A stretch of 64,000 nucleotides of DNA from NCBI RefSeq assembly GCF_988243305.1, contig NZ_OZ547136.1, one strand, 5' to 3'. A program made the position numbers and the translations under genes. This document shows, piece by piece, positions 2,552 through 46,658 of this stretch. Numbering within the stretch: position 1 is the stretch's first letter; every line of letters starts with the position of its first letter. The notes beneath the pieces are model-generated. The model worked only from the letters and a program-made list of their open reading frames with translations. It searched no databases and was not told the origin of the DNA.

Positions 2552-3730
2552 ATGAGTAATATTGTTTACCTGACAGTAACGGGAGAACAACAAGGAAACA
2601 TCTCCGCAGGTTGTGGGACTACTGAATCTATAGGTAATCGCTGGCAGAGTGGGCATGAGGATGAAATATTTACATTCTCACTCGCAAATAGAATTACTAA
2701 TACGGGACTTGGTTCACAGTTACAGGGTATGACATTTTGTAAATTAATTGATAAAAGCACTCCATTACTTATTAATTCCATTAACAATAATGAGCAATTA
2801 TTTATGGAATTTGACTTTTATAGAATCAATAGATTTGGTAGATGGGAAAAGTATTATTATATACAACTAAGAGGCGCTTTTTTATCGGCTATTCATCATC
2901 AGATCATTCAAAATCAACTGGATACAGAAACAATAACTGTTAGTTATGAATTTATCCTCTGTCAACATCTTATCGCAAATACCGAGTTCAGCTATTTGGC
3001 ACTCCCTGAAAATTATAACCGTTTGTTTTTACCAAATTCAAAAAACCAAACAAATAATCGTTTCAAAACTTTAAACAGCAAAGCTATTGGCAGGCTACTT
3101 GCTGCTGGTGGCGTATACAATGGGAACATTGAAGGATTCAGAGATACTGCGGAAAAACTGGGTGGAGATGCAATAAAAGGCTATGATCAAATACTAAATG
3201 AAAAAACAGCGGGCATAGCGATAGCAACAGCATCTATTCTTTTAACAAAGCGTTCTAATGTTGATACATATACAGAAATAAATAGTTACTTAGGCAAACT
3301 TAGAGGTCAACAAAAACTTCTTGATGGTATAGACATAATAGAAATAATATACATTAAGAGACCTTCAAAAGACTTAGCTAACTTACGAAAGGAGTTTAAT
3401 AAAACTGTAAGAAAAAATTTTCTTATCAAACTTGCAAAAACCTCCGAAGCATCTGGAAGATTCAACGCCGAAGACCTTTTAAGAATGAGAAAGGGCAATG
3501 TTCCTCTAAATTATAATGTTCACCATAAACTATCTCTAGATGATGGTGGTACTAATGATTTCGAAAATTTAGTATTAATCGAAAACGAACCATATCATAA
3601 AGTTTTTACTAACATGCAATCACGAATAGCTAAGGGAGTATTAGTAGGTGAAAGCAAAATCACTCCCTGGGCCATTCCATCTGGCTCAATTTATCCTCCC
3701 ATGAAAAATATTATGGAACCCACAAAATGA
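2552..3730 (+). CDS. yhhZ: Hcp-domain protein with a C-terminal HNH-like nuclease motif (T6SS-type polymorphic toxin)
   Basis: 392 aa; N-terminus IVYLTVTGEQQGN...EDEIFTFSL...KLIDKSTPLL fits the Hcp pattern; C-terminus has NVHHKLSLDDGGTNDFENLVLIENEPYH; AT-rich coding sequence. Confidence 0.85.
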   Translation: MSNIVYLTVTGEQQGNISAGCGTTESIGNRWQSGHEDEIFTFSLANRITNTGLGSQLQGMTFCKLIDKSTPLLINSINNNEQLFMEFDFYRINRFGRWEKYYYIQLRGAFLSAIHHQIIQNQLDTETITVSYEFILCQHLIANTEFSYLALPENYNRLFLPNSKNQTNNRFKTLNSKAIGRLLAAGGVYNGNIEGFRDTAEKLGGDAIKGYDQILNEKTAGIAIATASILLTKRSNVDTYTEINSYLGKLRGQQKLLDGIDIIEIIYIKRPSKDLANLRKEFNKTVRKNFLIKLAKTSEASGRFNAEDLLRMRKGNVPLNYNVHHKLSLDDGGTNDFENLVLIENEPYHKVFTNMQSRIAKGVLVGESKITPWAIPSGSIYPPMKNIMEPTK

Positions 3731-4221
3731 TGACTAAGACCCAAATAAATAAATTAAAAAAAATGATGAATGATTTAGACTATCCATTTGAAGCACCGCT
3801 TAAGGAATCATTTATTGAAAGTATAATCCAAATAGAATTTAATTCTAATTCAACTAATTGCCTGGAGAAGTTATGTAATGAAGTTAGTATTCTTTTTAAG
3901 AATCAACCTGATTATCTTACTTTTTTAAGAGCAATGGATGGATTCGAAGCTAATGGATTACGATTATTTAGCCTCTCGATTCCAGAACCTTCAGTTAAAA
4001 ACCTTTTTGCCGTAAATGAATTTTATAGAAATAATGATGATTTCATAAACCCTGATCTACAAGAACGGTTAGTGATCGGTGATGATAGCATTTCAATATT
4101 TACTTATGACATTAAAAATAACTTTTTTGAAATTAGAGATAATATTGGCACCGAAAATATATTCAGTTCGTTTAGTGATTTCTCTTCATTCTTAAACGAA
4201 ATCATGGACAGTTGTTCATAA
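3727..4221 (+). CDS. yrhA: Putative cognate immunity protein, translationally coupled to yhhZ
   Basis: 164-aa ORF overlapping the yhhZ stop (ATGA); AT-rich; intact here, whereas the K-12 locus is recalled to be interrupted by IS1. Confidence 0.6.
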   Translation: MMTKTQINKLKKMMNDLDYPFEAPLKESFIESIIQIEFNSNSTNCLEKLCNEVSILFKNQPDYLTFLRAMDGFEANGLRLFSLSIPEPSVKNLFAVNEFYRNNDDFINPDLQERLVIGDDSISIFTYDIKNNFFEIRDNIGTENIFSSFSDFSSFLNEIMDSCS

Positions 4222-12547: not shown

Positions 12548-13294
12548 TTACTGAACAATACTCTGCTTCAGCCGTTCATTGGCGGTCTTAATCCATTCCC
12601 GGTGGTGTTTTCTATAATGCGGTCTTGAGCGTTTAGCCGTATCAACCACGGCAACATACTGCTCGTTGGCTTCACGTAACCGACTCATTTTCGCCAGCAT
12701 TTCCGCATAATAAATACGCGCCTGCGGGCCGGGGTAATAAGAAATCAATACTTCAAACTCGCTTTCCGCATCAGCGTATTTTTCTTGTGCGGCTAACGTT
12801 CTGGCAAATAACAAATGCCCGTCTGCCGACTGAAAATCAGGGTTATAACGCATCACATCTTCCAGCGTCTGCTGACAGGCGGCGAACTCCTGAATAGCAA
12901 ACTGCGCCTGCGCCAGGCTGAGCATCATTGCCGCTTCATGGACGAATATCCCGCTTAACGCCTGCTGATAATGGGGAACGGCTTCGTGATAACGCCCCAG
13001 ACGCGCCAGTTCATTAGCCAACGCATAATGGTTTTGATTCGTCTCGGCAATCGCCATTTCTTCGGTTAATTTGCGCAGGTGGCGCTCAGGGTTGACTTTG
13101 TCCTGCAGGCGCATCAGCAAAGTATGCCCGTGACGGTCAGCGCCCGTTTCAGGCAGCATCACTATGACGAAATACGCCACGCAGCCAATCACCGGAAAAC
13201 AGAAAATGATAAAAATCCAGTACCGCTCTTGTCCGGTACGGTAAGCGTGAATACAGCAAAGCAGTTCAAGCATGACAACAACGGCATAATGCAT
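12548..13294 (-). CDS. Hypothetical membrane-anchored protein: N-terminal two-helix PLDc_N-like domain plus TPR-like helical repeats
   Basis: 248-aa ORF; hydrophobic N-terminus YRTGQERYWIFIIFCFPVIGCVAYFVIVMLPE then amphipathic repeats (YALANELARLGRYHEAVPHYQQAL...); lies between the liv terminator and ugp promoter; host-like GC content. Confidence 0.65.
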   Translation of the reverse strand: MHYAVVVMLELLCCIHAYRTGQERYWIFIIFCFPVIGCVAYFVIVMLPETGADRHGHTLLMRLQDKVNPERHLRKLTEEMAIAETNQNHYALANELARLGRYHEAVPHYQQALSGIFVHEAAMMLSLAQAQFAIQEFAACQQTLEDVMRYNPDFQSADGHLLFARTLAAQEKYADAESEFEVLISYYPGPQARIYYAEMLAKMSRLREANEQYVAVVDTAKRSRPHYRKHHREWIKTANERLKQSIVQ

Positions 13295-13412: not shown

Positions 13413-14126
13413 TTACCCGCCTAAATACGCACTTCTCACCGCTTCGTTCGCCAGTAGTGCATCACCAGTATCGGAGAGCACCACATGACCGTTTTCCAGC
13501 ACGTAGCCGCGATCCGCCAGCTTTAGCGCCTGGTTGGCGTTCTGCTCGACGAGGAAGATAGTCATCCCCTGCTCGCGCAGCTGCTCGATGGTGTCGAAAA
13601 TTTGCTGGATGATAATCGGCGCCAGTCCGAGCGAGGGTTCATCAAGCAACAACAAACGCGGGTTGCTCATCAGCGCACGACCAATCGCCAGCATCTGCTG
13701 TTCACCACCAGACATCGTTCCCGCCCGCTGAACACGGCGCTCATGTAGACGCGGAAACAGTTCATAGACCCACTTTATGCGCTCCTGAAACTGGTCGCGT
13801 TCGGCAAAAAAGCCGCCCATCGCCAGGTTCTCTTCCACCGTCATCCGCGAGAAGACGCGACGCCCTTCCGGGACAATCGCTACCGCTTCGCGCATGATTT
13901 TCGCCGTCTGCCAGTCGGTAATGTCTTTATCATCAAACACAATTCGCCCACTGGTGGCGCGCGGATCGCCGCATAACGTGCCGAGCAAGGTGGTTTTCCC
14001 CGCCCCGTTCGCGCCAATAAGGGTGACAATCTCGCCCTGATTGATATGCAGGCTCACCTCATGCAGCGCCTGGATTTTGCCGTAGTGGGCGCTGACTTTG
14101 TCAAAGGACAACATGACTTTTTCCAT
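13413..14126 (-). CDS. livF: Branched-chain amino acid ABC transporter ATPase
   Basis: Start placed at MEKVMLSFDKVSAHYG (237 aa); Walker A GANGAGKTT. Confidence 0.95.
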   Translation of the reverse strand: MEKVMLSFDKVSAHYGKIQALHEVSLHINQGEIVTLIGANGAGKTTLLGTLCGDPRATSGRIVFDDKDITDWQTAKIMREAVAIVPEGRRVFSRMTVEENLAMGGFFAERDQFQERIKWVYELFPRLHERRVQRAGTMSGGEQQMLAIGRALMSNPRLLLLDEPSLGLAPIIIQQIFDTIEQLREQGMTIFLVEQNANQALKLADRGYVLENGHVVLSDTGDALLANEAVRSAYLGG

Positions 14127-14127
14127 C

Positions 14128-14895
14128 TTATGCCTCACCTAAATAGGCACGGATCACGTCCGGGTTATTACGGATTTGCTCCGGCGTACCGTTTGCCAGC
14201 GGCGTCCCCTGGTTGACCACGTAAATTCGGTCTGAAATCCCCATCACCAGCTTCATATCGTGTTCAATCAACAAGATAGTGGTGTTGTGATGGTTACGCA
14301 GTTCGGCAATCAGCTCATCCAGCTCTTTCGTCTCTTTCGGGTTAAGACCTGCCGCAGGTTCGTCGAGCATTAAAATCTCCGGCTGCGTCACCATACAGCG
14401 GGCGATCTCCAGACGGCGCTGGTCGCCATAGGCCAGGTTACTCGCCTGGCGGTTGGCGTGTTCCAGCAAACCAATGCGCTCAAGCCAGGTGGCGGCGCGG
14501 TCGAGCGCTTCGCTCTGGGCGCGACGGAAAGAAGGCGTTTTCAACAGGCCAGAGAACAGCCCGGTTTTCAGTTGCTGATGCTGCGCCACCAGCAGGTTTT
14601 CAATTACCGTCATTTCACGGAACAGACGCACATGCTGGAAGGTGCGCACCACGCCCATGCGGGCGATTTGCTGCCCCGGTAAACCTTCAAGATGCTGATC
14701 ACGCAATAAAATAGTGCCGCCGGTGGGTTTGTAGAATCCGGTCAGGCAGTTAAAAACCGTGGTTTTTCCGGCACCGTTAGGGCCGATTAACGAGACGATC
14801 TCCTGCGGGTACAGTTCAAGATTGACGTTGTTCACCGCCAGCAGGCCGCCGAAGCGCATCATCAGGCCGTTAACAGATAATAATGGCTGACTCAT
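14128..14895 (-). CDS. livG: Branched-chain amino acid ABC transporter ATPase
   Basis: 255 aa; Walker [10 protein letters not shown]; matches LivG. Confidence 0.95.
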
Positions 14896-16169
14896 GCCTG
14901 CTCTCCTTTCGCTGCGCCGTTTTTCAGCTTCAGTTGCGGGCGCGTCATGGGCAGCAAACCCTGCGGACGCCAGATCATCATCAGCACCATCAAACCACCG
15001 AGCATTAACATGCTGTATTCGTTGAAATCACGCATCAATTCGCGCGACACCACCAGCAAAATTGCCGCCAGAATTACCGCAAATTGCGAGCCCATACCGC
15101 CGAGCACCACTATCGCCAGCACAAACGCCGATTCGGCAAAGGTGAAGGATTCCGGGCTGACAAAGCCCTGACGCGCAGCAAACAGCGTTCCGGCAAAACC
15201 GGCAAACGCGGCACTGATGGTAAAGGCAGTCAGCTTGATACGACGCGGGCTTAAGCCCAGCGAACGGCAGGCGATCTCGTCTTCACGCAACGCTTCCCAC
15301 GCACGGCCCAGCGGCATCCGCAGCAGGCGGTTAATGACAAACAGGCTTAGCACCACCAGCAGCAACGCCACCAGGTACAGGAAGATGACGCGATCGGAGG
15401 GATCGTATTTCAGGCCAAAGAAATTACTGAACGTGTCCCAGCCGCCTTCGCGGGCGGTACGGCTGAACTCGAGGCCGAAGAAAGTCGGTTTCGGGATCTG
15501 ACTAATTCCGTTCGGGCCACCAGTGATTTCAGTGTTATTGAGCAGCAATATGCGCACAATTTCGCCGAAACCGAGGGTAACGATCGCCAGATAGTCACCG
15601 CGCAGACGCAGCACCGGAAAGCCGAGCAGGAAGCCCGCCGCCGCCGCCATTAACCCGGCAATCGGCAGACAGGTCCAGAAGCCCAGACCGTAATAGTGAT
15701 TGAGCAGCGCAAAAGTGTAAGCGCCGATGGCGTAAAAGCCGCCGTACCCCAGCACCAGCAGACCAGAAAGACCTACCACCACGTTCAGCCCGAGGCCAAG
15801 GATAATGTAGATCATGGTCAGGGTGGCAATATCCACCGTCCCGCGTGAAACCATAAACGGCCACGCCACCGCAAGCACCAACAGCGCCACGAGGAACAGT
15901 TTCTGTTTCACCGTGGAGCCATCAATCGCGGGCAGAATAAACTTCGGTCCGGAAACGCTTTTCAGCCCTTTCTGGAAAGCCGGTCGCAAAAGCTGGAAGA
16001 AAAAGACCACCGCCGTGCCGATAAACACCCACTGCCAACGGATGTCTGAAGCCGTGTCGACCACCAGTTTGGTGCCATCCAGCTCCAGTTGCACGCCCAT
16101 AAAGACGCCAGCGAGGACAAAGAACATCGCGGCAGAGAGCAACGCCATTGCAATATGCATCGGTTTCAT
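14892..16169 (-). CDS. livM: Branched-chain amino acid ABC transporter permease
   Basis: 425-aa polytopic membrane protein matching LivM. Confidence 0.95.
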
Positions 16170-17092
16170 ACTTTCTCTACCTCCGGGCGACCCAGAATAC
16201 CGGTCGGCATCACCAGCAACACAAGAATCAGCAGGGCGAATGAGACCACATCTTTATATTCCGTACTCAGATAGGCAGAAGAGAGCGCCTCCGCAATCCC
16301 CAGGATCAGCCCGCCAATCATCGCTCCCGGAATGCTGCCAATCCCACCGAGCACCGCAGCGGTAAAGGCTTTCATCCCGGCCATAAAGCCGATGTAGGGG
16401 TTAATGACGCCGTAGAACTGACCGAGTAGCACACCCGCCACCGCCGCCATCGCCGCGCCAATCACAAAGGTCAGCGCAATCACCCGATCGGTGTTGATGC
16501 CAAGCAGGCTCGCCATTTTCAGATCTTCCGCGCAGGCACGGCAGGCGCGCCCCATACGGGAATAGCGAATGAAAATCGTCAGCGCCAGCATGGCGAGGAA
16601 AGTAACAATCCATATCACCGCCTGCATGGTGGTAATAGAGGCAGAGAAGTTTTCGCTATGGCCCACCACCCACTGACCGTTAAACAGACTGGGCAGCGCC
16701 ACGTCGCGCGAACCTTCGGTCAGACTGACATAGTTTTGCAGGAAGATGGACATGCCGATTGCGGAAATGAGCGCAATCAGGCGCTTAGAGTTACGCACCG
16801 GGCGATAGGCCACCCGTTCGATACTCCAGCCGTAGGCGCTGGCAATGACGATTGCGCCGACGAATCCCGCCGCCACCAGTAGCCAGCCGGTATCAATGCC
16901 CAGCATCATCAGTGCGGCGATGATCATAAAGGAGACATAGCTACCAATCATATAAACCTCGCCGTGGGCGAAGTTGATCATGCCGATAATGCCGTAAACC
17001 ATGGTGTAGCCGATGGCTATCAGCGCGTAGGTACTGCCCAGCGTGACGCCGTTAAACATCTGCTGCAAGAAATACAAAAACTGCTCAGACAT
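16166..17092 (-). CDS. livH: Branched-chain amino acid ABC transporter permease
   Basis: 308-aa membrane protein matching LivH. Confidence 0.95.
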
Positions 17093-17139
17093 AAGGTAAC
17101 CTTTCTAAACCCGCCCGTTTTTCACGGGCGGTGGGATGA

Positions 17140-18249
17140 TCACTTGGCTGCCGTGGATGAACCGTCGGCGTGCCACTGGAAGACACCAAAATCAAATCCC
17201 TTAAGATCGCCTTTTTCATCCCAGTTCAGCGGCCCAATCACGGTGTTCGCACCGTTAGCTTTTAAATCTTTCACCAGTGCCAGCGGCTCATCGCTGCCGG
17301 TACGCTCAAGGGCAGTCGCCAGAGATTGCACCGCCGCGTAAGTGATCCAGACATAAGGCCCGGACGGATCTTTCTTGTCTGCTTTCAACGCATCAACAAT
17401 GCCCTGGTTTGCCGGATCCTGGTCATAGCGTTTTGGCATAGTGACCAACATGCCTTCGGCAGCATCGCCAGCAATATTCGACAACGACGCATTACCCACA
17501 CCTTCCGGCCCCATAAACTGAGTTTTCAGGCCAACGGAACGGGCCTGGCGCAGCATCTGCCCCATTTCCGGGTAGTAACCGCCGTAGTAAACGAAGTCGA
17601 TGTTTTCTTTTTTCAGGCGGGCGATCAGCGCGGAGAAATCTTTCTCCCCGGCGGTAATACCGTCGAAGAAAACGACGTTGGCATTGGCTGCTTTCAATCC
17701 GTCCTGCACCGAACGCGCCAGCCCTTCACCATACTGTTGTTTGTCGTGAATGATCGCGATGCGCTGGGGCTTCACCGTCTCAAGAATGTATTTTGCCGCC
17801 GTTGGCCCCTGGGAAGAGTCCAGCCCGGCAGTGCGCATGATGTGTTGATAACCGCGTTGGGTCAGCTCCGGGTTGGTCGCTCCCGGCGAGATCATCAGAA
17901 TACCTTCGTCTTCGTAGATATCTGAAGCAGGCTGGGTAGAGGAGGAACACAGATGGCCGATGACGTATTTAATGCCGTCGTTAACGATTTTGTTGGCGAC
18001 CGCAACGGCTTGTTTCGGATCGCAGGCGTCGTCATATTCCACGCCCACCAGCTTATCGCCCTTAATTCCCCCTTTGGCATTAATGTCTTTAATGGCCTGA
18101 CGCGCGCCGTTAAATTCCATATCGCCCCACTGAGCAATCGGACCGGACATCGCGCCGACAACGGCAACTTTAATATCATCGGCTAAAGCGGTGTGTGAAA
18201 TTGCCAGTGCAATCATCCCTGCGATGATAGTTTTCGCATTCCGTTTCAT
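17140..18249 (-). CDS. livK: Leucine-specific periplasmic binding protein
   Basis: Start placed at [11 protein letters not shown] (369 aa, signal peptide); paralog of livJ. Confidence 0.9.
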
Positions 18250-18672
18250 AGTCAAAAATCCCCACTCGTAATGTTGTGTTGCTTTGTTTTTATGTGTTAA
18301 CAAATCAGGCTGTTCTTTTTTTATACTGCGCTGTTTTTACCTGTCTGATTAAGGGTTTAGCGCAGTATTTTGTGATAATAGCGATTAAAATCCCTATTTT
18401 TCAGTCGATTAAGAACAGATAATATTCTGAATTAATTGATAGATAAACAGAAAAAAGCACCGTTGTCAGCATAAAATAACGGAACAAAGGGCAGAATAAT
18501 TCACTACCATTCAGGGGATTATGCTGGACATTTTTCATTCTCTAATGTTTTAACTTTGTAATTATTGCTGAAAAAAAATTAATCACCTGCCAAAAGAAAT
18601 AAAAAAGAGAAAGCCTCCGATTAAATTATTTCGCTACACTGGTTCCTCTTTTGTGATTTACACGGGTTACCC

Positions 18673-19056
18673 ATGAAGCTGACCATCATTCGATTAGAAA
18701 ACTTTAGCGACCAGGACCGGATTGACCTGCAAAAGATCTGGCCGGAGTATTCCCCTTCCTCTTTACAGGTTGACGATAACCACCGTATCTACGCCGCGCG
18801 TTTTAACGAGCGCCTCCTAGCGGCCGTGCGGGTAACCTTAAGCGGCACCGAGGGGGCACTGGATTCTCTACGTGTGCGGGAAGTCACCCGCCGTCGCGGT
18901 GTGGGGCAATATCTGCTGGAAGAGGTTTTGCGTACCAATCCTGGCGTTTTAGGCTGGTGGATGGCGGATGCTGGCGTGGAAGATCGCGGTGTGATGACGG
19001 CGTTTATGCAGGCGCTGGGGTTTACGGCACAACAGGGCGGCTGGGAGAAGCGTTAA
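18673..19056 (+). CDS. panM: PanD maturation factor (PanZ/PanM)
   Basis: 127-aa ORF MKLTIIRLENFSDQDRIDLQKIW... matching E. coli PanM/YhhK. Confidence 0.9.
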   Translation: MKLTIIRLENFSDQDRIDLQKIWPEYSPSSLQVDDNHRIYAARFNERLLAAVRVTLSGTEGALDSLRVREVTRRRGVGQYLLEEVLRTNPGVLGWWMADAGVEDRGVMTAFMQALGFTAQQGGWEKR

Positions 19057-19580
19057 TCGCTCTGTGTAAAAAGCAGTTCAATGGATTTGGTTGGGAAAAA
19101 TAACGCATTTTCGTTTTCTCCGACCAGCGGGATAAAGCCCAGCGACTGATAAAACGTATGGGCTTTTTCATTCAGCGCCTCGACAAAAAGACCGTGAATA
19201 CCTACCGCTAAAGAGGCTGACCAGACGACTTTCATGGCATGAGCAACCAGTGTTGCTCCCCATCCCTGTCCCTGTAATGAACGATCAATTGCCAGACGCC
19301 CAAGAGTGACGCTGGGAATATTTTTGTAGGGAATTTTTTTCTGTTTCGATTTCGAGGGCAATGCGGCTCGTTCAAAACAACTGCCGGATAATGTGTAATA
19401 TCCCAGGACCTGACGTTCTGGAGTGTTGCGACAAAGGATATACGCTCGCAGAATTTTATTGCGATGTTGACGAATCAGATGTGCCGTCAGAAAGAGATTT
19501 AACGCTTCCTCGCCGCAGTCGAATCGCTGTAGATCATAATCTGCATCATCGGTCAGAATCTCTATCGTCAGATCATCCAT
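19053..19580 (-). CDS. ataT: GNAT-family acetyltransferase toxin of a type II TA system (AtaT/TacT/ItaT family)
   Basis: 175-aa ORF MDDLTIEILTDDADYDLQRFDCGEEALN...; immediately downstream of a DUF1778-like gene; resembles AtaT of E. coli O157 as recalled. Confidence 0.75.
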   Translation of the reverse strand: MDDLTIEILTDDADYDLQRFDCGEEALNLFLTAHLIRQHRNKILRAYILCRNTPERQVLGYYTLSGSCFERAALPSKSKQKKIPYKNIPSVTLGRLAIDRSLQGQGWGATLVAHAMKVVWSASLAVGIHGLFVEALNEKAHTFYQSLGFIPLVGENENALFFPTKSIELLFTQSD

Positions 19581-19586
19581 AAATGA

Positions 19587-19853
19587 TTACATTCCCTGAA
19601 GACGTTTTGTCGCACGTTTTAGCTTTTCACCTGGCGACGGTGGATTACTCAGCGCATCCATCACCCGCGTCCAGGATTCCTCATTGAGGATCACCCGCCG
19701 ATGCTGTTCAATCACTTCCGCAGCCCGCTGCGAAGCGCTGTTCAACATAAATTGGCTGACGGACTGATTAGATATCGCTGCCGCTTCCTCAATCATACTT
19801 TTGTCATCGTCAGTTAAACGCAGATCGATACGCTGCTTTTTAACAGCAGACAT
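19587..19853 (-). CDS. ataR: DUF1778 antitoxin (AtaR/TacA family)
   Basis: 88-aa ORF MSAVKKQRIDLRLTDDDKSMIEEAAAISNQSVSQF...; upstream of and co-oriented with the GNAT toxin gene. Confidence 0.75.
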   Translation of the reverse strand: MSAVKKQRIDLRLTDDDKSMIEEAAAISNQSVSQFMLNSASQRAAEVIEQHRRVILNEESWTRVMDALSNPPSPGEKLKRATKRLQGM

Positions 19854-19950
19854 GTGAACTCTCCTGCTCCGTATAATATGTACGGCATATCACCGTACAA
19901 TAAGCATATCCTGGATTGTTTAATCTTTCTACAACCATTTCGACAAACAC

Positions 19951-19983
19951 AAAAAAACCCGATGGACGTTAAGCGCATCGGGC
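19951..19983 (-). terminator. Rho-independent terminator after livJ
   Basis: CCCGATGCGCTTAACGTCCATCGGG hairpin followed by T7 on the minus strand, 20 bp after the livJ stop. Confidence 0.6.
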
Positions 19984-20002
19984 ATTTTCATTTATCTATC
20001 TG

Positions 20003-21106
20003 TTACTTCGCATCTGTCGCCGTGCCGTTGGCGTGCCAGTCAAATACGCCGAACTCAAAGCCTTTCAGATCGCCTTTCTCATCCCACGTCAGCGGCCCCA
20101 TCACCGTATCAACCGAGTTTGCTTTCAGGTATTTGGCGATCTCCGCCGGATCGTCAGACTGATTCAGCCCCGCCTGCAAAGATTGCAGCGCCGCGTAGGT
20201 GGTCCAGACGAATGCGCCGCTTGGATCTTGTTTTTTCGCTTTGATCGCGTCAACAATCGGTTTGTTCGCCGGAACCTGATCGTAGTTCTTCGGCTTGGTC
20301 ACCAGCAGTCCTTCCGCTGACTCGCCCGCGATATTAGACAGCGAGACGTTAGCCACACCTTCCGGCCCCATAAACTGAGTTTTCAGCCCCGCCGCGCGCG
20401 CCTGACGCAGGATCTGCCCCATTTCCGGGTGATAACCGCCGTAGTAAACGAAGTCGATATTCTCTTTCTTCAGGCGTGCCACCAGCGTCGAGAAATCTTT
20501 TTCCCCGGCGGTGATGCCATCAAAGAACACTACGTTAGCATTGCCTTTCTTCAGGCCGTCCTGCACCGCACGCGCCAGACCTTCGCCGTACTGTTGTTTG
20601 TCGTGAACGATAGCAATACGCTGCGGTTTCACTTTCTCAAGAATATATTTCGCCGCCGTTGGTCCCTGGTCGGAGTCCAGGCCAGTGGTGCGCATAATCA
20701 ACTTATAGCCGCGCGCGGTCAGTTCTGGCGCGGTTGCCGCAGGGGTTATCATTAAAATGCCTTCATCTTCATAGATGTCTGACGCTGGCTGCGTTGATGA
20801 AGAACAGAGGTGACCAATCACATATTTAATGCCGTCGTTAACGACTTTGTTCGCCACCGCAACCGCCTGTTTCGGGTCACAGGCATCGTCATATTTCACG
20901 ATTTGCAGTTTGTTGCCTTTGATACCACCTTTAGCATTGATATCCGCAACCGCCTGCTCAGCACCAGTAAACTCCTGGTCACCGTACTGGGCCACCGGAC
21001 CGGACATTGCGCCCACGACCGCGACTTTAATATCTTCTGCCAGAGCCATATTGCTGAATGCCAGCGCGATACATCCTGCCAGTAACGCTTTACCCTTCAT
21101 GTTCAT
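20003..21106 (-). CDS. livJ: Leu/Ile/Val periplasmic binding protein
   Basis: Start placed at [18 protein letters not shown] (367 aa; K-12 has MNIKGK); the ORF-track start is an upstream extension. Confidence 0.9.
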
Positions 21107-21321
21107 CCTGAGGTTCCCCATTCTTCTGGTTATTACGTGTGTTGTGATGTTGTTGTTCAGCACTTTATTTCGTTTTATGCATAACTACCCGTGCTTTAGC
21201 AGCATACTCTGCTAAAACATACCCGATTTTTATGATATTGGAATAGCTATTTTGACAGTTTATTAACAATCTGCGTGGGGATTGGCGTTTTGCCGGAGGG
21301 GGAAACTGATTATTGCAGAGG

Positions 21322-21358
21322 CCCAAAAAACAAAAACCCCGGATTCTCATCCAGGGTT
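21322..21358 (-). terminator. Rho-independent terminator after rpoH
   Basis: AACCCTGG-atgagaat-CCGGGGTT hairpin followed by TTTTTGTTTTTTGGG on the minus strand. Confidence 0.6.
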
Positions 21359-21377
21359 CTCTGCTAAGTAGCGGAAA

Positions 21378-22232
21378 TTACGCTTCAATGGCAGCGCGAA
21401 GTTTTTTCATCGCGTTCTTTTCCAGCTGGCGCACACGCTCAGCGGAAACACCGTAACGGTCAGCCAGTTCCTGCAACGTGGACTTGTTGTCTTCGTCCAG
21501 CCAGCGCGCGCGGATGATATCCTGGCTACGCTCGTCCAGACCTTGCATCGCGTCGGTCAGACGGTTTGCCGCCTGCTCTTCCCAGTTATCATCTTCAATG
21601 CCGTCAGCAAAGTTAGATGATTTATCCTGCAGATAGAGCACCGGAGCCATCGGCTGGCTATCGGAATCGTCGTCGGAAGACAGGTCAAAGGTCATGTCCT
21701 GTGCCGCCATACGCGATTCCATCTCAAGTACGTCTTTGCTGGTTACGCCCAGTTCACGGGCCACCATTTCGACTTCATCCTGGTTAAACCAGCCCAGACG
21801 CTGCTTGGTTTTACGCAGGTTGAAGAACAGTTTGCGCTGCGCTTTGGTGGTCGCAACTTTGACGATACGCCAGTTACGCAGAACGTATTCGTGGATCTCT
21901 GCTTTGATCCAGTGGACGGCGAAGGAGACCAGGCGCACACCCACTTCCGGGTTAAAACGGCGCACTGCTTTCATCAGGCCGATGTTACCTTCCTGAATCA
22001 AATCCGCCTGTGGCAGGCCATAGCCCGCATAATTACGAGCAATATGAACAACAAACCGCAGGTGAGACAGGATCAGCGTTTTAGCTGCTTCCAGATCGCC
22101 ATGGTAATGCAGCTTTTCAGCCAGCGCCCGCTCCTCGTCAGCCGACAACATCGGCCACGCGTTAGCTGCCCGGATGTAAGAATCCAGGTTGCCAACTGGG
22201 GCTAAAGCTAAACTTTGCATTTTGTCAGTCAT
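21378..22232 (-). CDS. rpoH: RNA polymerase sigma-32 (heat-shock sigma factor)
   Basis: 284-aa [30 protein letters not shown]... matching RpoH. Confidence 0.97.
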
Positions 22233-22476
22233 TCAAATCCTCTCAATCGATATCTTCTGGCGCTTCAGTGGTAGCAACAACTGTGCCAGAGCTTAAGAGC
22301 AACGAGGTTATCATTCACTGTTTTATCAGACCGTGATTTTATCCACAAGTTCAATGCAAGCTTGTGAATAAATTACGCACAAAATGTGACATAGAGATGA
22401 AATACCGGGAAGAGACAACGGGGTCTCTTTCCCTGCTACGGAACCCATTGCAGGGAAAGAGTATAACACGCTTTTA

Positions 22477-23535
22477 TTATTCAGGCGTAAAGTGGCGTAA
22501 ATGTTGTACCGTGGCAAGCCACGCTGCCACCCAGCCAATCATCGAGCATACCAGCAGCAACAGCAGGCATTCATCGAACGATAAGCCATTGATATCAAAC
22601 TTCGTTCCGAAAACCTGTGCCACTTCTGCAACCGCCGATGACAAACGCAGTACCAGAATTTCTGACAAAATTAATGACAGCAATGCGCCAGAAAATCCCA
22701 GCAATGCGCCTCCGTACAGGAACGGGCGCAGGATGAAACCATCCGTCGCACCAATCAGTTTTTGTACGTTAATGGAGTCACGGCGAGCAAAGATGCTCAG
22801 ACGCACACTGTTGCCGATGACGAGGAACACTGCTGCCACCATCAACACGCCGATCATCGCGGAAACGCGCCCGACCAGCCCGGTCAACGCCGCCAGACGG
22901 GCAAACCAGCTGTCATCCATCCGCACTTCGTCAATGCCGTTGATCTGGGTGATACGATCACGCAGCGTATTCAGTGATTCCGTCCCCTGAAAATCGAGTT
23001 TCGGGATCACCACCGCCACTGCCGGAAGCGGGTTTTCTTCCAGCATATCCAGCGCGCCGCCAAAACCAGACCAGTTACGGAACTCGCCCAGCGCGTCTTC
23101 ACGAGAAAGATAGTTCACTTTCTCTACGCCCTGCTCGGCCTGTAGCTGTGCCACCACGCCCGCAGCGGCGTCATCGTCCAGCGTTTTTTGCAGATAAACA
23201 GTGATTTGCGGTGACGGATAATACTGCGTCGCCGCCTGGTTAACGTTTTTGTACACCATATAACAGACGCTGGGCAGCGTCAGGGAGATGGCGATAACCA
23301 TCACCGTTAAAAACGTGGCGAACGGTTTGCTTTTCAGATCCTGCAATGCGCCGTGGAAGGCATAGCGCACCTGTTCGTTGAAAACGTTGGTTTTGCGATT
23401 TACCGGTTTTGGCGAGGATTTCGCGCGTTTCGGTGCGTTACGACCGCCGTCGCCTGAGCCGCCGACCGATTTACGGAAGCGATCCAGACGCCCGCCAAAC
23501 TGCCGAATATGATTGATTGCATCGCGCTTATTCAT
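22477..23535 (-). CDS. ftsX: Cell division ABC-type permease-like protein
   Basis: Start placed at [15 protein letters not shown] (352 aa); 8-bp overlap with ftsE. Confidence 0.93.
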
Positions 23536-24196
23536 GGCCCACGCCTCCATGCAAGTGACCATCGCTCAGGGTGAGCATGCGATAGGAACGCCGCGAAATC
23601 AGGTTGATGTCGTGCGTTGCCATCAATACGGTTACCCCAACGCGGTTAAACTCTTCAAACAGACGTAAAATGCCTTCCGACAACGCGTCGTCCAGGTTAC
23701 CAGTCGGTTCGTCCGCCAGCAGTACCGCGGGCTTGTTCACCACCGCGCGGGCAATGCCAACACGCTGTTGTTCACCGCCGGAAAGCTGAATAGGGAAGTT
23801 CTTCGCTTTGTCCAGTAGCCCGACTTTATCCAGCGCCGCCGACACCCGGCGACGAATATCGTCACCGCTGGCACCAGCGATAATCAGCGGGATCGCCACG
23901 TTATCGTAGACAGTACGGTCCATCAGTAGATGGTGATCCTGGAAAATCATGCCAATCTGGCGGCGCAGAAACGGAACTTCACGGTTTTTCAGACGCGTGA
24001 TGTCATGGCCGCTAAACCAGATTTTCCCGGCGCTGGGCCGCTCAATCCCACAGATCAGCTTCAGGAGGGTACTTTTCCCTGCGCCGGAATGACCGGTCAG
24101 AAACGCCATCTCACCCGGCTGCATATGGAACGTAACGCCCTGCAGCGCCTGTCTCCCACCGAGATAAGCCTTGCTGACATGTTCAAAGCGAATCAT
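23528..24196 (-). CDS. ftsE: Cell division ATP-binding protein
   Basis: 222 aa; Walker [10 protein letters not shown] and signature LSGGEQQR. Confidence 0.95.
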
Positions 24197-24198
24197 TG

Positions 24199-25695
24199 TT
24201 AATCCTCTCGGGCAAAAAGTGCCTCTATAAAGTCGTCCGCCTTAAACGGACGCAAATCCTCAATACGTTCGCCGACACCAATGTAGCGGATAGGGATACC
24301 AAACTGGTCAGCCACCGAGAAAATTACCCCGCCTTTCGCCGTGCCGTCCAGTTTCGTTAGCGTGATGCCGGTTAAGCCAACGGCTTCGTGGAACAGTTTG
24401 GCCTGGCTTACCGCGTTCTGCCCGGTGCTGGCATCAATAGTCAGCATAACTTCATGCGGCGCTTCAACGTCGAGTTTCTTCATCACGCGGACGATTTTCT
24501 TCAACTCTTCCATCAGGTGCGATTTGTTCTGCAGGCGTCCGGCGGTATCGGCAATCAGGACGTCGATATTACGCGCTTTAGCGGCCTGAATGGCGTCGAA
24601 GATAACAGAGGCGGAATCCGCCCCGGTATGCTGGGCAATCACCGGAATATTGTTGCGCTGACCCCAGACCTGAAGCTGTTCAACCGCTGCTGCACGGAAA
24701 GTATCGCCCGCCGCCAGCATCACCGATTTACCCTGCTGCTCAAACTGACGCGCCAGCTTACCAATCGTCGTGGTTTTACCCACACCGTTGACGCCCACCA
24801 TCAGGATCACGAACGGCGTTTTACCTTCAACATTCAGCGGCTCATCGACTTTCGCCAGAATCTCGCCCATCTCTTCTTTCAGCAGGCCATAGAGCGCCTC
24901 GGCATCACGAAGCTGCTTGCGGGATGCGCCTTCCGTCAGATTGGTGATAATTTTACGTGTGGTTTCCACGCCCACATCGGCGATCAACAGCTGTTCTTCC
25001 AGCTCTTCAAACAGATCATCGTCGATTTTTTTACCGCGGAACAGGCTGATAAATCCGGAACCGAGGTTTTCTTTGGTTTTTAACAGGCTGCGTTTCAGGC
25101 GCGCGAAGAAACCTTCTTTGGTCGGTTTTTCCTGCTCCTGAGCGATTTCATCCACCGGCTGCTCTTCTTCTGCCGGAGGAACCACCATCACCGCCTCTTC
25201 TGCCGCTTCGGCAGCCAGCGCCTGTGTTTCCAGCTCTTCGTCGGTGATTTCTTCTTTAGCCGCTTCTTCTTCCGCCGCTTCGACAATCTCTACGGTTTCC
25301 GCTTCAGCCCGCCACTCTTCTGGCGAAACCTCTTCGGCGTTGACGTCTTCCGGCAACGGCAGCTCTTCACGTTCGATAGCCACTAGCTCCGGCGTTTCTT
25401 CTGCGATCAGTTCCGGCTGTGCAACGACTTCCGCTTCAGGCTGCGCTTTTTCACTTTCAGCAACCTGTTCAGTGACTTCCACAACTTCGGCAGCAAAAGT
25501 TTCCGCTTCGGCCTCAGTATGCGCCTGCGGCTGCTCTTCAACGGCGTGTTCAGAAGCCTTCGCAGGCTCTTGCGCCTGAACGATTTCTTCTACAACCGGT
25601 TGTTCATTCTGAACTTCTGTCTCTTTTTCCGGGGTCTGCTCTTTTTGACCAAAGCCCAGCCAGGAAAAAAAGCCACGTTTTTTTTCTTTCGCCAT
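24199..25695 (-). CDS. ftsY: Signal recognition particle receptor
   Basis: 498 aa; acidic A/E-rich N-terminal domain then an SRP-type GTPase domain (GVNGVGKTTT). Confidence 0.95.
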   Translation of the reverse strand: MAKEKKRGFFSWLGFGQKEQTPEKETEVQNEQPVVEEIVQAQEPAKASEHAVEEQPQAHTEAEAETFAAEVVEVTEQVAESEKAQPEAEVVAQPELIAEETPELVAIEREELPLPEDVNAEEVSPEEWRAEAETVEIVEAAEEEAAKEEITDEELETQALAAEAAEEAVMVVPPAEEEQPVDEIAQEQEKPTKEGFFARLKRSLLKTKENLGSGFISLFRGKKIDDDLFEELEEQLLIADVGVETTRKIITNLTEGASRKQLRDAEALYGLLKEEMGEILAKVDEPLNVEGKTPFVILMVGVNGVGKTTTIGKLARQFEQQGKSVMLAAGDTFRAAAVEQLQVWGQRNNIPVIAQHTGADSASVIFDAIQAAKARNIDVLIADTAGRLQNKSHLMEELKKIVRVMKKLDVEAPHEVMLTIDASTGQNAVSQAKLFHEAVGLTGITLTKLDGTAKGGVIFSVADQFGIPIRYIGVGERIEDLRPFKADDFIEALFARED

Positions 25696-25844
25696 TTGCG
25701 ACTACACTCCTCGCTGTTGCTTCATGGCACAGCGTTAACGCTATGTACATAGCAGCTAAAAAAATGATGAAATAGTCTATCACTTAACTTAATTCACATC
25801 ACCGCCTGCAAGTATGTGTTATCTGGCGGATTGAGCAATTTATC

Positions 25845-26441
25845 ATGAAAAAACCGAATCATTCCGGCAGCGGCCAAATCCGCATTATTGGCGGGCAGTG
25901 GCGAGGCCGTAAACTCCCGGTTCCTGATAGCCCAGGTCTGCGCCCCACCACCGACCGCGTACGCGAAACGTTGTTTAACTGGCTGGCTCCGGTCATTGTT
26001 GACGCCCAATGTCTGGATTGCTTCGCCGGAAGCGGCGCGCTGGGGCTGGAAGCGTTGTCGCGCTACGCTGCGGGGGCCACGTTGATTGAGATGGATCGCG
26101 CGGTTTCTCAGCAGTTAATTAAGAATCTGGCGACACTAAAAGCAGGCAATGCACGCGTGGTGAACAGCAACGCGATGTCATTCCTGGCGCAAAAAGGCAT
26201 ACCGCATAATATCGTGTTTGTCGATCCACCGTTCCGCCGTGGCTTGTTAGAAGAGACGATAAATTTACTGGAAGATAACGGCTGGCTGGCTGACGAAGCC
26301 CTGATTTATGTCGAAAGCGAAGTCGAAAACGGTCTGCCCACCGTTCCGGCGAACTGGTCATTACATCGGGAAAAAGTGGCGGGTCAGGTGGCTTATCGGC
26401 TGTATCAACGCGAAGCACAAGGAGAAAGTGATGCTGATTAA
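25845..26441 (+). CDS. rsmD: 16S rRNA m2G966 methyltransferase
   Basis: 198-aa ORF MKKPNHSGSGQIRIIGGQWRGRKL... with DPPF motif. Confidence 0.93.
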   Translation: MKKPNHSGSGQIRIIGGQWRGRKLPVPDSPGLRPTTDRVRETLFNWLAPVIVDAQCLDCFAGSGALGLEALSRYAAGATLIEMDRAVSQQLIKNLATLKAGNARVVNSNAMSFLAQKGIPHNIVFVDPPFRRGLLEETINLLEDNGWLADEALIYVESEVENGLPTVPANWSLHREKVAGQVAYRLYQREAQGESDAD

Positions 26442-37638: not shown

Positions 37639-40441
<2,803 letters not shown>

Positions 40442-40639
40442 CACCTCCCAACGCGCCGTTATTTCCTGACGGCGCAGTAGACTTCTGCCAAATATCGACT
40501 CACGTCACATTTTTTTGATCACGATTTGGTCCCTCAAAATGTGAGACGCTTCGATCCTCTTTTTCTCCCGTTCACCTACTATACGCTTGAAGTTGTCCAT
40601 GATTGTCCATAGACAACTGTAAATGTTCAGGTGCGCGCC

Positions 40640-41386
40640 ATGAAATCATTAAGTAAGTCGTCACAAATACCGCTCTATCAACAAGTGGTGGAGTGGATAA
40701 GAGAAAGTATTTATACCGGGGATTTGGTGGAAGACGATCGCATTCCTTCGGAATACCAGATTATGGATATGCTGGAAGTGAGTCGGGGAACCGTTAAAAA
40801 AGCAGTCGCCCAACTGGTAAAAGAAGGCGTGTTGATTCAGGTCCAGGGGAAGGGAACATTTGTCAAAAAAGAGAACGTGGCATATCCGTTAGGTGAAGGA
40901 TTATTGTCATTCGCGGAATCGCTGGAAAGCCAGAAAATACACTTTACCACTGAAGTTATTACGTCACGGATTGAACCGGCTAATCGTTATGTGGCAGAGA
41001 AATTAAGAATAACGCCCGGTCAGGATATTCTTTACCTTGAGCGTTTACGTTCAATTGGTGATGAAAAAGCGATGCTGATAGAGAACCGTATCAATATTGA
41101 GCTATGCCCCGGCATCGTGGAAATCGATTTTAATCAACACAATTTATTTCCAACAATAGAAAGTTTGTCGCAAAGAAAAATTCGTTACTCGGAAAGTCGC
41201 TATGCCGCGCGATTAATTGGTAATGAACGCGGTCATTTTTTAGATATCAGTGAAGATGCACCCGTTTTGCATCTGGAGCAGTTAGTCTTTTTCTCCCGAG
41301 AGTTACCCGTTGAGTTTGGCAACGTCTGGTTAAAAGGAAATAAATATTATCTGGGTACCGTGCTGCAACGGCGGGAATTGAGTTAA
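40640..41386 (+). CDS. GntR/HutC-family transcriptional regulator (winged HTH plus UTRA-type effector domain)
   Basis: About 248 aa; N-terminus IPLYQQVVEWIRESIYTGDLVEDDRIPSEYQIMDMLEVSRGTVKKAVAQLVKEGVL is a typical GntR HTH; not in K-12 at this position. Confidence 0.8.
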   Translation: MKSLSKSSQIPLYQQVVEWIRESIYTGDLVEDDRIPSEYQIMDMLEVSRGTVKKAVAQLVKEGVLIQVQGKGTFVKKENVAYPLGEGLLSFAESLESQKIHFTTEVITSRIEPANRYVAEKLRITPGQDILYLERLRSIGDEKAMLIENRINIELCPGIVEIDFNQHNLFPTIESLSQRKIRYSESRYAARLIGNERGHFLDISEDAPVLHLEQLVFFSRELPVEFGNVWLKGNKYYLGTVLQRRELS

Positions 41387-41410
41387 ATACACTTTTTTAT
41401 GAGGAATAAA

Positions 41411-41884
41411 ATGCAAGGCATACAGTTTCAGGAAAATTATATTCAACGACTTCCGTCAGGGTTAAGCGTTGAACAGATCATCCGTCAGTTAGCGCAACCG
41501 TTGGTTGCTGCTGAGCTGGTGGTCCCTGATTTTGCCGATCACGTACTGAAACGTGAGGCGACGTACCCAACGGGGCTGCCTACCGAACCACCGTGCGTCG
41601 CCATTCCGCACACGGACCATAAATATGTCAGGCACAATGCAATTGCCGTCGGCATCCTGCCGGAACCGGTAGAGTTTGCCGATATGGGCGGCGATCCTGA
41701 CCCCGTACCTGTCAGGGTGATTTTTTTGCTCGCCTTAAGCGAAAGTAATAAACAATTAAATGCCCTGGGCTGGATTATGGAGATGATTCAGGATACGCCC
41801 TTTATGTGCGCCCTGCTTACGATGGAAACAACAGAAATACACACAGTAATCTTAAACAAAATGAAAGAACGAGGTGAAATATGA
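41411..41884 (+). CDS. PTS enzyme IIA, type-2 (fructose/mannitol/galactitol class)
   Basis: ATG at 41411 after GAGGA; contains VAIPHTDH, a candidate phospho-His site; about 157 aa. Confidence 0.75.
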   Translation: MQGIQFQENYIQRLPSGLSVEQIIRQLAQPLVAAELVVPDFADHVLKREATYPTGLPTEPPCVAIPHTDHKYVRHNAIAVGILPEPVEFADMGGDPDPVPVRVIFLLALSESNKQLNALGWIMEMIQDTPFMCALLTMETTEIHTVILNKMKERGEI

Positions 41885-42162
41885 GTCAAACCATTTTATT
41901 TGTCTGCGCCACGGGTATTGCCACATCCACGGCGGTAACAGAAAAAGTCATGGAATATTGTAAAGAGCACGGTCTTAACGTCAATTATTCCCAAACCAAC
42001 GTTGCCTCTTTACCTGGAAATACTGACGGCGTAGCACTGGTAGTCTCAACGACTAAAGTGCCTTATGAACTCGACGTCCCGGTGGTTAACGGCTTGCCGA
42101 TTATTACCGGTATTGGCGAAGAGAAAGTACTGGCGCAAATTGTTTCGATCCTTAAAAAGTAA
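41881..42162 (+). CDS. PTS enzyme IIB, galactitol family
   Basis: 93 aa; MSQTILFVCATGIATSTAV resembles GatB with the phospho-Cys in the C(A)TG motif; 4-bp overlap with IIA. Confidence 0.8.
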   Translation: MSQTILFVCATGIATSTAVTEKVMEYCKEHGLNVNYSQTNVASLPGNTDGVALVVSTTKVPYELDVPVVNGLPIITGIGEEKVLAQIVSILKK

Positions 42163-42238
42163 TTAATAATAATTAATTTCAACCCACTCCATCAGGCGCT
42201 AACGCGAGGTGCGCTCTCGCCTGAAAAAGAGGTTTATT

Positions 42239-43597
42239 ATGAACGATATCGCGCATACCCTCTATAATATTGTGCAATATATATTGGGATTTGGTCCCAC
42301 GGTAATGTTGCCGTTGGTGTTATTTATTCTTGCTCTCTTTTTTAAAGTAAAACCCGCTAAAGCCTTACGTTCGTCATTAACGGTCGGCATTGGTTTTGTC
42401 GGTATTTATGCCATTTTCGATATTCTTACCAGCAATGTCGGGCCAGCGGCCCAGGCGATGGTTGAACGCACCGGAATTAATTTACCGGTGGTGGATTTAG
42501 GCTGGCCGCCGCTTTCCGCTATTACATGGGGTTCGCCAATTGCCCCGTTTGTTATTCCCCTGACTATTCTGATTAACGTGGCGATGCTGGCGTTAAATAA
42601 AACCCGCACCGTTGACGTAGATATGTGGAACTACTGGCATTTTGCCCTTGCCGGTACGCTGGTTTATTACAGCACCGGCAGCCTGTTCTTTGGTTTGCTG
42701 GCAGCGGCGATTGCTGCGGTGGTAGTACTTAAACTCGCCGACTGGTCTGCGCCACTGGTACAAAAATACTTTGGCCTGGAAGGGATCTCTTTGCCGACGC
42801 TCTCTTCGGTGGTGTTCTTCCCGGTCGGTCTGCTGGTCGACAAAATCATCGACCATATCCCCGGCCTCAATCGTATTCATATCGATCCGGAAACCGTGCA
42901 GAAAAAGTTTGGCATCTTCGGTGAACCGATGATGGTTGGCACTATTCTGGGCATTCTGCTCGGCGTAATTGCCGGATACGATTTCAAAAAAGTCTTGCTG
43001 CTTGGCATCAGCATTGGCGGTGTGATGTTCATCCTGCCACGCATGGTTCGCATTCTGATGGAAGGTTTATTACCGCTGTCTGAAGCCATTAAAAAGTATC
43101 TCAATGCCAAATACCCTGACCGTGACGATCTCTATATCGGCCTGGATATCGCCGTTGCCGTAGGTAACCCAGCGATTATCTCCACCGCCCTGCTGCTGAC
43201 GCCAATCTCGGTCTTTATCGCGTTTGTCCTTCCGGGTAATGAAGTCCTGCCGCTTGGCGACCTTGCCAACCTGGCGGTAATGGCGTCGATGATTGCTTTA
43301 GCCAGCCGTGGCAACATTTTCCGCACCGTTCTGGCGGCGATTCCGGTGATTATTGCCGATCTGTGGATTGCGACTAAAATCGCGCCGTTTATTACCGGAA
43401 TGGCGAAAGACGTTAATTTCAAATTTGCCGAAGGCTCCAGCGGCCAGGTCTCCAGTTTCCTTGATGGCGGTAACCCATTCCGCTTCTGGCTGCTGGAAAT
43501 CTTCAACGGCAATCTCATCGCCATTGGTCTGGTGCCGGTTATCGCCCTGGTACTGTATGGTATTTTCCGAATGACGCGGAGCACGGTTTATGCCTGA
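42239..43597 (+). CDS. PTS enzyme IIC, galactitol family
   Basis: ATG at 42239 after AAGAGG; polytopic membrane protein with clear similarity to GatC (GPTVMLP..., ...VDVGWP..., ...PRMV..., ...GNEVLPLGDLA...). Confidence 0.85.
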   Translation: MNDIAHTLYNIVQYILGFGPTVMLPLVLFILALFFKVKPAKALRSSLTVGIGFVGIYAIFDILTSNVGPAAQAMVERTGINLPVVDLGWPPLSAITWGSPIAPFVIPLTILINVAMLALNKTRTVDVDMWNYWHFALAGTLVYYSTGSLFFGLLAAAIAAVVVLKLADWSAPLVQKYFGLEGISLPTLSSVVFFPVGLLVDKIIDHIPGLNRIHIDPETVQKKFGIFGEPMMVGTILGILLGVIAGYDFKKVLLLGISIGGVMFILPRMVRILMEGLLPLSEAIKKYLNAKYPDRDDLYIGLDIAVAVGNPAIISTALLLTPISVFIAFVLPGNEVLPLGDLANLAVMASMIALASRGNIFRTVLAAIPVIIADLWIATKIAPFITGMAKDVNFKFAEGSSGQVSSFLDGGNPFRFWLLEIFNGNLIAIGLVPVIALVLYGIFRMTRSTVYA

Positions 43598-45098: not shown

Positions 45099-45357
45099 AA
45101 CCGTGGAGGTCAGAAACAGTACTGGCCTGCATGCACGTCCGGCGGCCTGTCTGGCGAAAGCCGCCAAAAAATATAGCTGTAAAGTGACGCTGCACTATGA
45201 GGGTAATGATATTAATGCCACCAGCATGATGAATATTATGCGCGCCGGAATAAAAGGCGGAAAAACGGTGGAAATACGCTGCGACGGTGATGATGAAAAC
45301 GAGGCCATACAGACTCTCACCGACTTATTTCGCGACCGCTTCGGTGAAGCTGAATAA
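45088..45357 (+). CDS. HPr-family phosphocarrier protein
   Basis: 89 aa; GLHARPAA contains the conserved active-site His; preceded by GGGAGGA. Confidence 0.8.
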   Translation: MLNKTVEVRNSTGLHARPAACLAKAAKKYSCKVTLHYEGNDINATSMMNIMRAGIKGGKTVEIRCDGDDENEAIQTLTDLFRDRFGEAE

Positions 45358-45388
45358 TTAACTGATATTAAAAGATGAGGTTTTCAAT

Positions 45389-46249: not shown

Positions 46250-46262
46250 GAGCCACAAAAAT

Positions 46263-46297
46263 ATAGCGGCGCAACAGAAATTGTTGGGCCGCTATAA
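46263..46297. terminator. Strong hairpin between convergent aldolase and hicB-like genes
   Basis: ATAGCGGCGCAACA-gaaa-TTGTTGGGCCGCTAT inverted repeat; A/T-rich flanks on both sides. Confidence 0.35.
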
Positions 46298-46298
46298 G

Positions 46299-46658
46299 TT
46301 ATAAATGATTCAAACGCTCATTCAGTGTTTCAATAATATAGGTATTTACAGAGACTTGTTGCTGCGCAGCCGCATTATTAAGGCGTTCACTCAGCGATTC
46401 TGGATAGCGTAATGTAAAGGTCTTAATCTTTTCTGTACGCGCATACGGCTCAATACCCGCAGCTTTACAATCCTCAAGATACTCTCGCAGGGAAAGCTCC
46501 CCTTCTTTTTGCAGCCCCTGAATGCTGTCAGAGACAAAATCACAATAACCTGACAAGCCCAGGAATTTGCCACGAAATGCATTCAGTTCTGGCACGTAAG
46601 TGATAACTGCAGGTTGCCCGGCAATCTCCATAGAGTTTGGTGTCTTCAGTTTGATCAT
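46299..46658 (-). CDS. hicB: HicB-family antitoxin (UPF0150 domain plus C-terminal ribbon-helix-helix)
   Basis: 119 aa; C-terminus TFTLRYPESLSERLNNAAAQQQVSVNTYIIETLNERL is RHH-like; 4-bp overlap with the upstream toxin gene. Confidence 0.7.
   Translation of the reverse strand: MIKLKTPNSMEIAGQPAVITYVPELNAFRGKFLGLSGYCDFVSDSIQGLQKEGELSLREYLEDCKAAGIEPYARTEKIKTFTLRYPESLSERLNNAAAQQQVSVNTYIIETLNERLNHL

Follow-up and report, generated by a model that had tools for sequence, protein, structure and literature searches.

The gene pair at positions 19053-19853 of the 64-kb stretch of DNA analysed here (contig NZ_OZ547136.1; the whole stretch of 64,000 nucleotides is referred to as the window) is, to judge from its sequence, almost certainly the chromosomal type II toxin-antitoxin operon ataR-ataT of Escherichia coli at its usual locus. 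The system is already known; its genetics, biochemistry, and structure have been studied since 2017, and standard genome annotation names it. An earlier note, made from the nucleotide sequence alone, had described a two-gene module between panM and livJ, consisting of a toxin of the AtaT/TacT/ItaT family of tRNA-acetylating GNAT proteins and a DUF1778 antitoxin. This identification proved correct: two open reading frames (ORFs) of the minus strand are found there, the toxin assignment can be narrowed to AtaT itself, and its partner is AtaR.

AtaT of the window matches the solved AtaT structures over its full length (residues 1-175) with E-values of 2e-114 for PDB entry 6GTS_A and 1e-113 for 6AJM_A at 97% identity, and 170 of its 175 residues are identical to those of AtaT from strain EDL933, the substitutions being T33A, V36I, C65S, N117K, and K145Q. 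AtaR matches 6AJM_C, the EDL933 AtaR, with an E-value of 2e-51 and is identical to it at 87 of 88 positions, the single change being A82T. In Pfam, AtaT matches the GNAT domains PF13508, PF00583, and PF13673, and AtaR matches PF08681, i.e., TacA1 (DUF1778), with an E-value of 3e-25. The best matches are therefore the AtaT and AtaR structures and not housekeeping acetyltransferases without a DUF1778 partner. KacT (3e-74) and KacA (7e-38) from Klebsiella are the next structural relatives, and TacT and ItaT-type toxins are far more distant. RefSeq names ataT and ataR at the same panM-livJ junction in DNA that is 100% identical (strain Z1323HEC0462) or 97.4% identical (EDL933) to that of the window; in EDL933 the ataRT locus corresponds to Z4833-Z4832 (PMC7957018). 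The pair bears these names at this junction in 1612-1624 of the 5426 complete E. coli genomes of RefSeq. Since NCBIfam contains no dedicated model for AtaT or AtaR, its scan giving generic sub-threshold matches only, the assignment draws on identity with the proteins whose structures are solved.

Both genes are encoded on the minus strand with the antitoxin first, are separated by a gap of 6 nt, and have intact ORFs. The first, ataR (19587-19853), is predicted from ORF, PDB, and Pfam evidence to code for an 88-residue antitoxin and repressor of the DUF1778/TacA ribbon-helix-helix (RHH) type, and the second, ataT (19053-19580), for a GNAT toxin of 175 residues that would act as aminoacyl-tRNA N-acetyltransferase. 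A Shine-Dalgarno sequence AGGAG (19861-19865, minus strand), read from the sequence 7 nt ahead of the ataR ATG, is kept among intact alleles. At its 3' end ataT converges with panM (panZ; 18673-19056, plus strand; PF12568 PanZ, 2e-55 in Pfam). The stop codons of toxin and panM had been said to overlap by 4 bp, which holds for the coding regions (19053-19056), whereas the two TAA stops themselves have 2 bases in common.

Upstream of ataR, overlapping palindromes had been proposed as an autoregulatory operator, and one of them stands. Repeat and pattern searches locate a perfect inverted repeat, TGTACGG-N7-CCGTACA, at 19879-19899, which is the predicted operator; its arms of 7+7 nt are perfectly complementary, and it overlies the putative promoter, 25 bp upstream of the ataR start. 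Arms and spacing are exactly those of the 27-bp KacAT operator that was crystallised together with KacA4KacT2, AAATGTACGGTTATTAACCGTACATGA, i.e., TGTACGG-N7-CCGTACA (PMC6698736). Within the window the repeat occurs only once, and 0.15 occurrences are expected even if two mismatches are allowed. Generic inverted repeats with 7-nt arms and a 7-nt gap are not rare, as 13 of them exist in the window, and the case for the operator thus rests on its position, its conservation, and its identity to the known operator. No change in the 7-nt arms is seen among the window, EDL933, AR_0058, the decayed locus of E. coli HH97 (see below), E. albertii, and E. coli SCPM-O-B-8794, and E. whittamii retains the 6-nt core. 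Seven Escherichia alleles thus share the core GTACGG-N7-CCGTAC, and 3 of the 7 positions of the spacer are variable among them. The other palindrome of the earlier note, CCGTATAATATGTACGG (19869-19885), fares less well, being imperfect (6 of 8 positions pair) and not conserved. Its left arm CCGTAT (19869-19874), a doubtful third half-site, agrees with CCGTAC at 5 of 6 positions and reads CCATAT in E. albertii and ACTTAT in E. whittamii. A third half-site is unsupported, and the predicted operator of ataRT is confined to one palindrome, not two overlapping ones. For the putative promoter, a plausible -10 box is the candidate TATTAT (19873-19878, minus strand) read from the sequence just downstream of the operator, which itself spans the spacer and the -35 position relative to this box.

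Among the known systems, AtaR-AtaT of EDL933 (PDB 6AJM, 6AJN, 6GTO-6GTS, and 7CHD) consists of the same genes at the same panM/ataT/ataR/livJ junction, with operator arms, Shine-Dalgarno sequence, and 6-nt gene gap identical to those of the window; two spacer bases of the operator and a single flanking base are different, and the DNA of the whole intergenic cassette is 97.4% identical. KacA-KacT of Klebsiella pneumoniae (PDB 5XUN and 5ZGN) likewise includes a clade A GNAT toxin, directed at tRNAs that carry glycine or hydrophobic residues, and shares the T-A2-A2-T hexamer and the operator TGTACGG-N7-CCGTACA with the same arms and spacing. In contrast to the EDL933 system, it shows about 67-73% protein identity and resides at another genomic location. 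TacA-TacT of Salmonella and ItaR-ItaT of E. coli HS also combine a GNAT toxin that acetylates aminoacyl-tRNAs with a DUF1778/RHH antitoxin, but they are distant (PDB E-values of 1e-11 to 1e-21), belong to other clades, and differ in tRNA specificity or have a narrower one.

In K-12, panM (panZ) is followed by a geneless spacer of 187 bp and then by livJ, which agrees with the earlier note, where the two genes are direct neighbours in K-12. This spacer consists mostly of repeats of the repetitive extragenic palindromic (REP) type, matching dozens of sites per genome. In the alignment with K-12, homology stops after TTAATCG (19059/19060) and restarts at the livJ stop codon (20003), which defines a variable cassette of 943 bp (19060-20002) in place of the REP-containing spacer. 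The module had been placed at 19053-19983, which is right as to position, although the segment that is unlike K-12 is slightly wider. Comparison of the cassette with the K-12 spacer gave only chance matches of 7-13 nt and no recognisable remnant. Our survey set comprised 5426 complete RefSeq genomes of E. coli. The gene panM is present in 5424 of them and the cassette in 1624 (about 30%; 1612 with at least 80% coverage), always on the chromosome and always as a single copy, and 3748 genomes possess a K-12-like junction; the module is thus not universal. Cassette and K-12 spacer are better put as two alternative alleles of the intergenic region than as the outcome of a simple insertion. In E. 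coli HH97 a decayed, internally deleted ataRT is found (locus 3305-3656); ataT is reduced to a piece of its 3' part and ataR to a frameshifted piece of its 5' part, with operator, Shine-Dalgarno region, and livJ terminator still nearly intact. Decay or loss of the cassette therefore does occur.

A scan across species, using one genome per species, detected the same module with 98-99% AtaT identity in the type strain of E. albertii, in E. whittamii, and in one more representative named E. coli. The order livJ-ataR-ataT-panM-livK and the 4-bp overlap are identical in all three, and the junctions of the cassette are the same in E. coli, E. albertii, and E. whittamii. Identity to E. albertii amounts to 97.7% for ataT and 97.4% for ataR, against 92-93% for livK, panM, and livJ, and the corresponding values for non-coding DNA are 95.9% in the cassette versus 88.3%. 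In every pair of genomes tested, synonymous differences per site are fewer in the cassette (0.06-0.13) than in the flanking livK, panM, and livJ (0.15-0.29), with Fisher p values of 4e-2 to 2e-9. Synonymous divergence of the cassette is thus 2-4 times below that of its flanks, between species included, and the tract of low divergence coincides with the cassette. KacT-like copies are common on plasmids and phage-plasmids, and these nearest homologues of KacT type are 68.8% identical; in the collection searched, AtaT copies of more than 80% identity were absent from plasmids. The G+C content of the cassette is 45.8%, compared with 54-57% in the flanks. Taken as a whole, the comparison suggests that the cassette is horizontally derived and now resides only at this locus, and that Escherichia lineages have probably exchanged it through homologous recombination, a lead that comes from six genomes.

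A different history, in which the cassette is a recent insertion in the lineage of this strain and the K-12 state is ancestral, is improbable. The low G+C content does show foreign ancestry, the cassette is missing from K-12 and the other genomes with a K-12-like junction, and the K-12 spacer holds no trace of it. However, cassette, 4-bp overlap with panM, and livJ terminator are common to E. albertii, E. whittamii, and several E. coli lineages, the HH97 remnant shows that loss happens, and the cassette has diverged by 2.5-4% between lineages, which argues that it is not recent. An old allele circulating in the genus would account better for these data. A more far-reaching proposal is that the cassette is a genus-wide alternative spacer allele that has moved between species since the flanks diverged and that, in addition, its conserved convergent 4-bp overlap may couple ataT and panM by read-through antisense transcription. 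As a combined proposal it is rather unlikely. AtaT is a toxin that consumes acetyl-CoA, and PanM/PanZ is an acetyl-CoA-sensing regulator of coenzyme A (CoA) biosynthesis. A variable cassette of low G+C content that is better conserved than its flanks offers a modest lead on how chromosomal toxin-antitoxin modules persist and spread.

Strain Z1323HEC0462 (NZ_CP148331.1) is 100% identical to the window in livK, ataT, ataR, and livJ and 99.7% identical in panM (about 17140-21106), and about 97.9% identical to the rest of the window, which indicates a recombinant patch that includes the cassette and its flanks. The paralogues livK and livJ (compared over 17162-18177 and 20025-21046), which flank panM-ataRT in the same orientation, share about 76-77% DNA identity. 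Synonymous divergence (dS) of livJ is unusually high between the window and EDL933 (about 0.3), compared with 0.05 between EDL933 and K-12.

With regard to the allele present in the window, the residues considered important for AtaT function are in place. In the CoA loop, Q103-G-Q-G-W-G108 agrees with the GNAT signature R/Q-x-x-G-x-A/G, and G108, involved in acetyl-CoA binding, as well as the catalytic Y144 are kept; these roles, as those of other AtaT residues, are known from mutagenesis (PMC7595197). Residues A26, L27, and L136 of the aminoacyl pocket are present, as are F30, H34, R37, R40, R71, S76, K77, S78, K79, K81, K82, Y85, and R95, which are assigned to the tRNA acceptor stem, and no AtaT residue for which a toxicity-reducing mutation exists is altered. 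AtaR possesses R8, D10, and R12 in the β-strand of its RHH fold, whose equivalents in KacA contact operator bases. Other Escherichia alleles commonly have S65, K117, and Q145, EDL933 being the odd one at these positions, whereas T33A and V36I of AtaT and A82T of AtaR do not occur in the five other intact alleles examined. The same ataRT allele, identical at the DNA level, is carried by Z1323HEC0462. In both genes nonsynonymous divergence (dN) is far below dS, with 2 nonsynonymous and 10 synonymous differences between ataT of the window and that of E. albertii, and ataT and ataR are therefore under purifying selection. The window allele is expected to be active.

Several points weigh against taking the pair as a fully equivalent ataRT operon. 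The window allele differs from EDL933 AtaT by five substitutions, of which T33A and V36I are located in the tRNA-binding helix α1 and K145Q adjoins the catalytic Y144, and A82T of AtaR falls in the toxin-binding tail. Also, the operator was assigned from the KacAT sequence and from secondary accounts that describe a palindromic ataRT operator, and no candidate passed the thresholds when positions 18950-20100 were scanned for consensus σ70 promoters. If these substitutions mattered, T33A, V36I, and A82T might lower toxicity or alter the preference among aminoacyl-tRNAs with respect to EDL933. T33A and V36I do flank H34, R37, and R40, three residues that attenuate toxicity when mutated together, the allele is rare (at least 99% identity in only 2 of the 5426 genomes), and GNAT toxins are known for evolutionary shifts in specificity (PMC9177977). 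A functionally altered allele is very unlikely, however, as Thr to Ala and Val to Ile are conservative replacements, all residues tested by mutagenesis are unchanged, both ORFs are intact with dN far below dS, and clade A toxins as remote as KacT and AcaT retain the same target set.

The mode of action of the ataRT pair would follow that of the EDL933 proteins, to which AtaT and AtaR are 97-99% identical. For EDL933, growth arrest by AtaT and its neutralisation by the antitoxin have been described (PMC7595197, PMC7957018). Initiator Met-tRNAfMet was the first target reported for AtaT, later joined by Gly-, Trp-, Tyr-, and Phe-tRNAs, which are acetylated more efficiently than Met-tRNAfMet, and translation is inhibited globally (PMC7595197, PMC9177977). 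Several groups have supported this tRNA acetylation by liquid chromatography-mass spectrometry (LC/MS) and crystal structures (PMC7595197, PMC9177977). As established for the EDL933 proteins, a homodimer of AtaT from the window would transfer acetyl groups from acetyl-CoA to the α-amino group of aminoacyl-tRNAs, by which translation and growth would be blocked, and the disordered C-terminal half of AtaR would wrap around AtaT, such that the active dimer could not form. Neutralisation and repression through a T-R2-R2-T hexamer have been reported (PMC8138530, PMC10135005, PMC6698736). As in EDL933, an AtaT-AtaR2-AtaR2-AtaT heterohexamer would place two RHH dimers on the palindromic operator with high affinity and repress the operon, and an excess of AtaT would change the stoichiometry, yielding a complex of lower DNA affinity that is released from the DNA.

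One report assigns AtaT to virulence, as deletion of ataT reduces adhesion of enterohaemorrhagic E. coli and colonisation of mice and AtaT acetylates the protein EspB (PMC7957018). That protein acetylation (at K206 of EspB) and virulence, and not tRNA-based growth control, represent the relevant role of AtaT is nevertheless a highly improbable reading: it rests on a single study, the module is present equally in strains from carrot, wolf, and wastewater, in commensal strains, and in E. whittamii, and the acetylation of tRNA is backed structurally and by LC/MS from several groups. Finally, although Pfam gives generic GNAT domains only, NCBIfam has no dedicated profile, and the neighbouring panM also encodes a GNAT-fold protein, there is next to no chance that the pair is an ordinary housekeeping acetyltransferase beside a small regulator, which is refuted by 97% and 99% identity to proteins shown to be toxic and neutralising. 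AtaT and PanM also lack detectable similarity, and the module is absent from 70% of the genomes.

As to the neighbouring genes, an origin of ataT as a duplicate of panM was considered and rejected, AtaT having no detectable similarity to the GNAT-fold PanM in BLASTP (E = 5.3). All alleles examined that carry ataRT have CGT (Arg) as the last codon of panM (region 19051-19056), where K-12 has TGT (Cys); the differing base is situated just outside the coding region of ataT, which ends at 19053. On the other side of the module, livJ (20003-21106, minus strand) is followed by a predicted intrinsic terminator (19952-19988, minus strand), GCCCGATG...CATCGGG and then T7, which is located within the variable cassette; the K-12 sequence differs at this position in the alignment. 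Its predicted fold has a free energy of -23.3 kcal/mol (z = -5.3). Because of its loop of 11 nt it was skipped by a consensus terminator scan of 18950-20100, which gave no match, and it was recovered by an inverted-repeat search and folding. No RNA family of Rfam was detected at E ≤ 1 across 18250-21450.

The window is 96-97.4% identical to K-12 throughout. For the region 14000-26000, no complete RefSeq genome of E. coli exceeds 98.9% identity and most show 97.3%, and the lineage of the window thus seems to be without a close relative among complete genomes, possibly being a divergent or cryptic Escherichia clade. At 4108-4116 (K-12 positions 3583428-3584195), the window does not contain the IS1E that splits yrhA in K-12, and yrhA is uninterrupted. 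Between ugpB and livF, where the gap is 913 bp compared with a 214-bp spacer in K-12, a protein of 248 residues is encoded (12548-13294, minus strand) with tetratricopeptide repeats and an N-terminal hydrophobic segment, where residues 26-44 match PLDc_N weakly and below threshold. Between nikR and yhhJ, a 6.5-kb island (40440-47002) takes the place of rhsB-yhhH-yrhC-yhhI of K-12 and encodes a GntR/UTRA regulator, IIA, IIB, and IIC components of a galactitol-type phosphotransferase system, an FGGY kinase, an HPr-like protein, and a class II aldolase, followed by hicAB. The latter constitute a second type II toxin-antitoxin pair in the window (46299-46930, minus strand), which is not found in K-12 at this position; the gene for the HicA-like toxin (46655-46930; PF07927, 2e-9) overlaps by 4 bp with that for the HicB-like antitoxin (46299-46658; PF05534, 2e-15).

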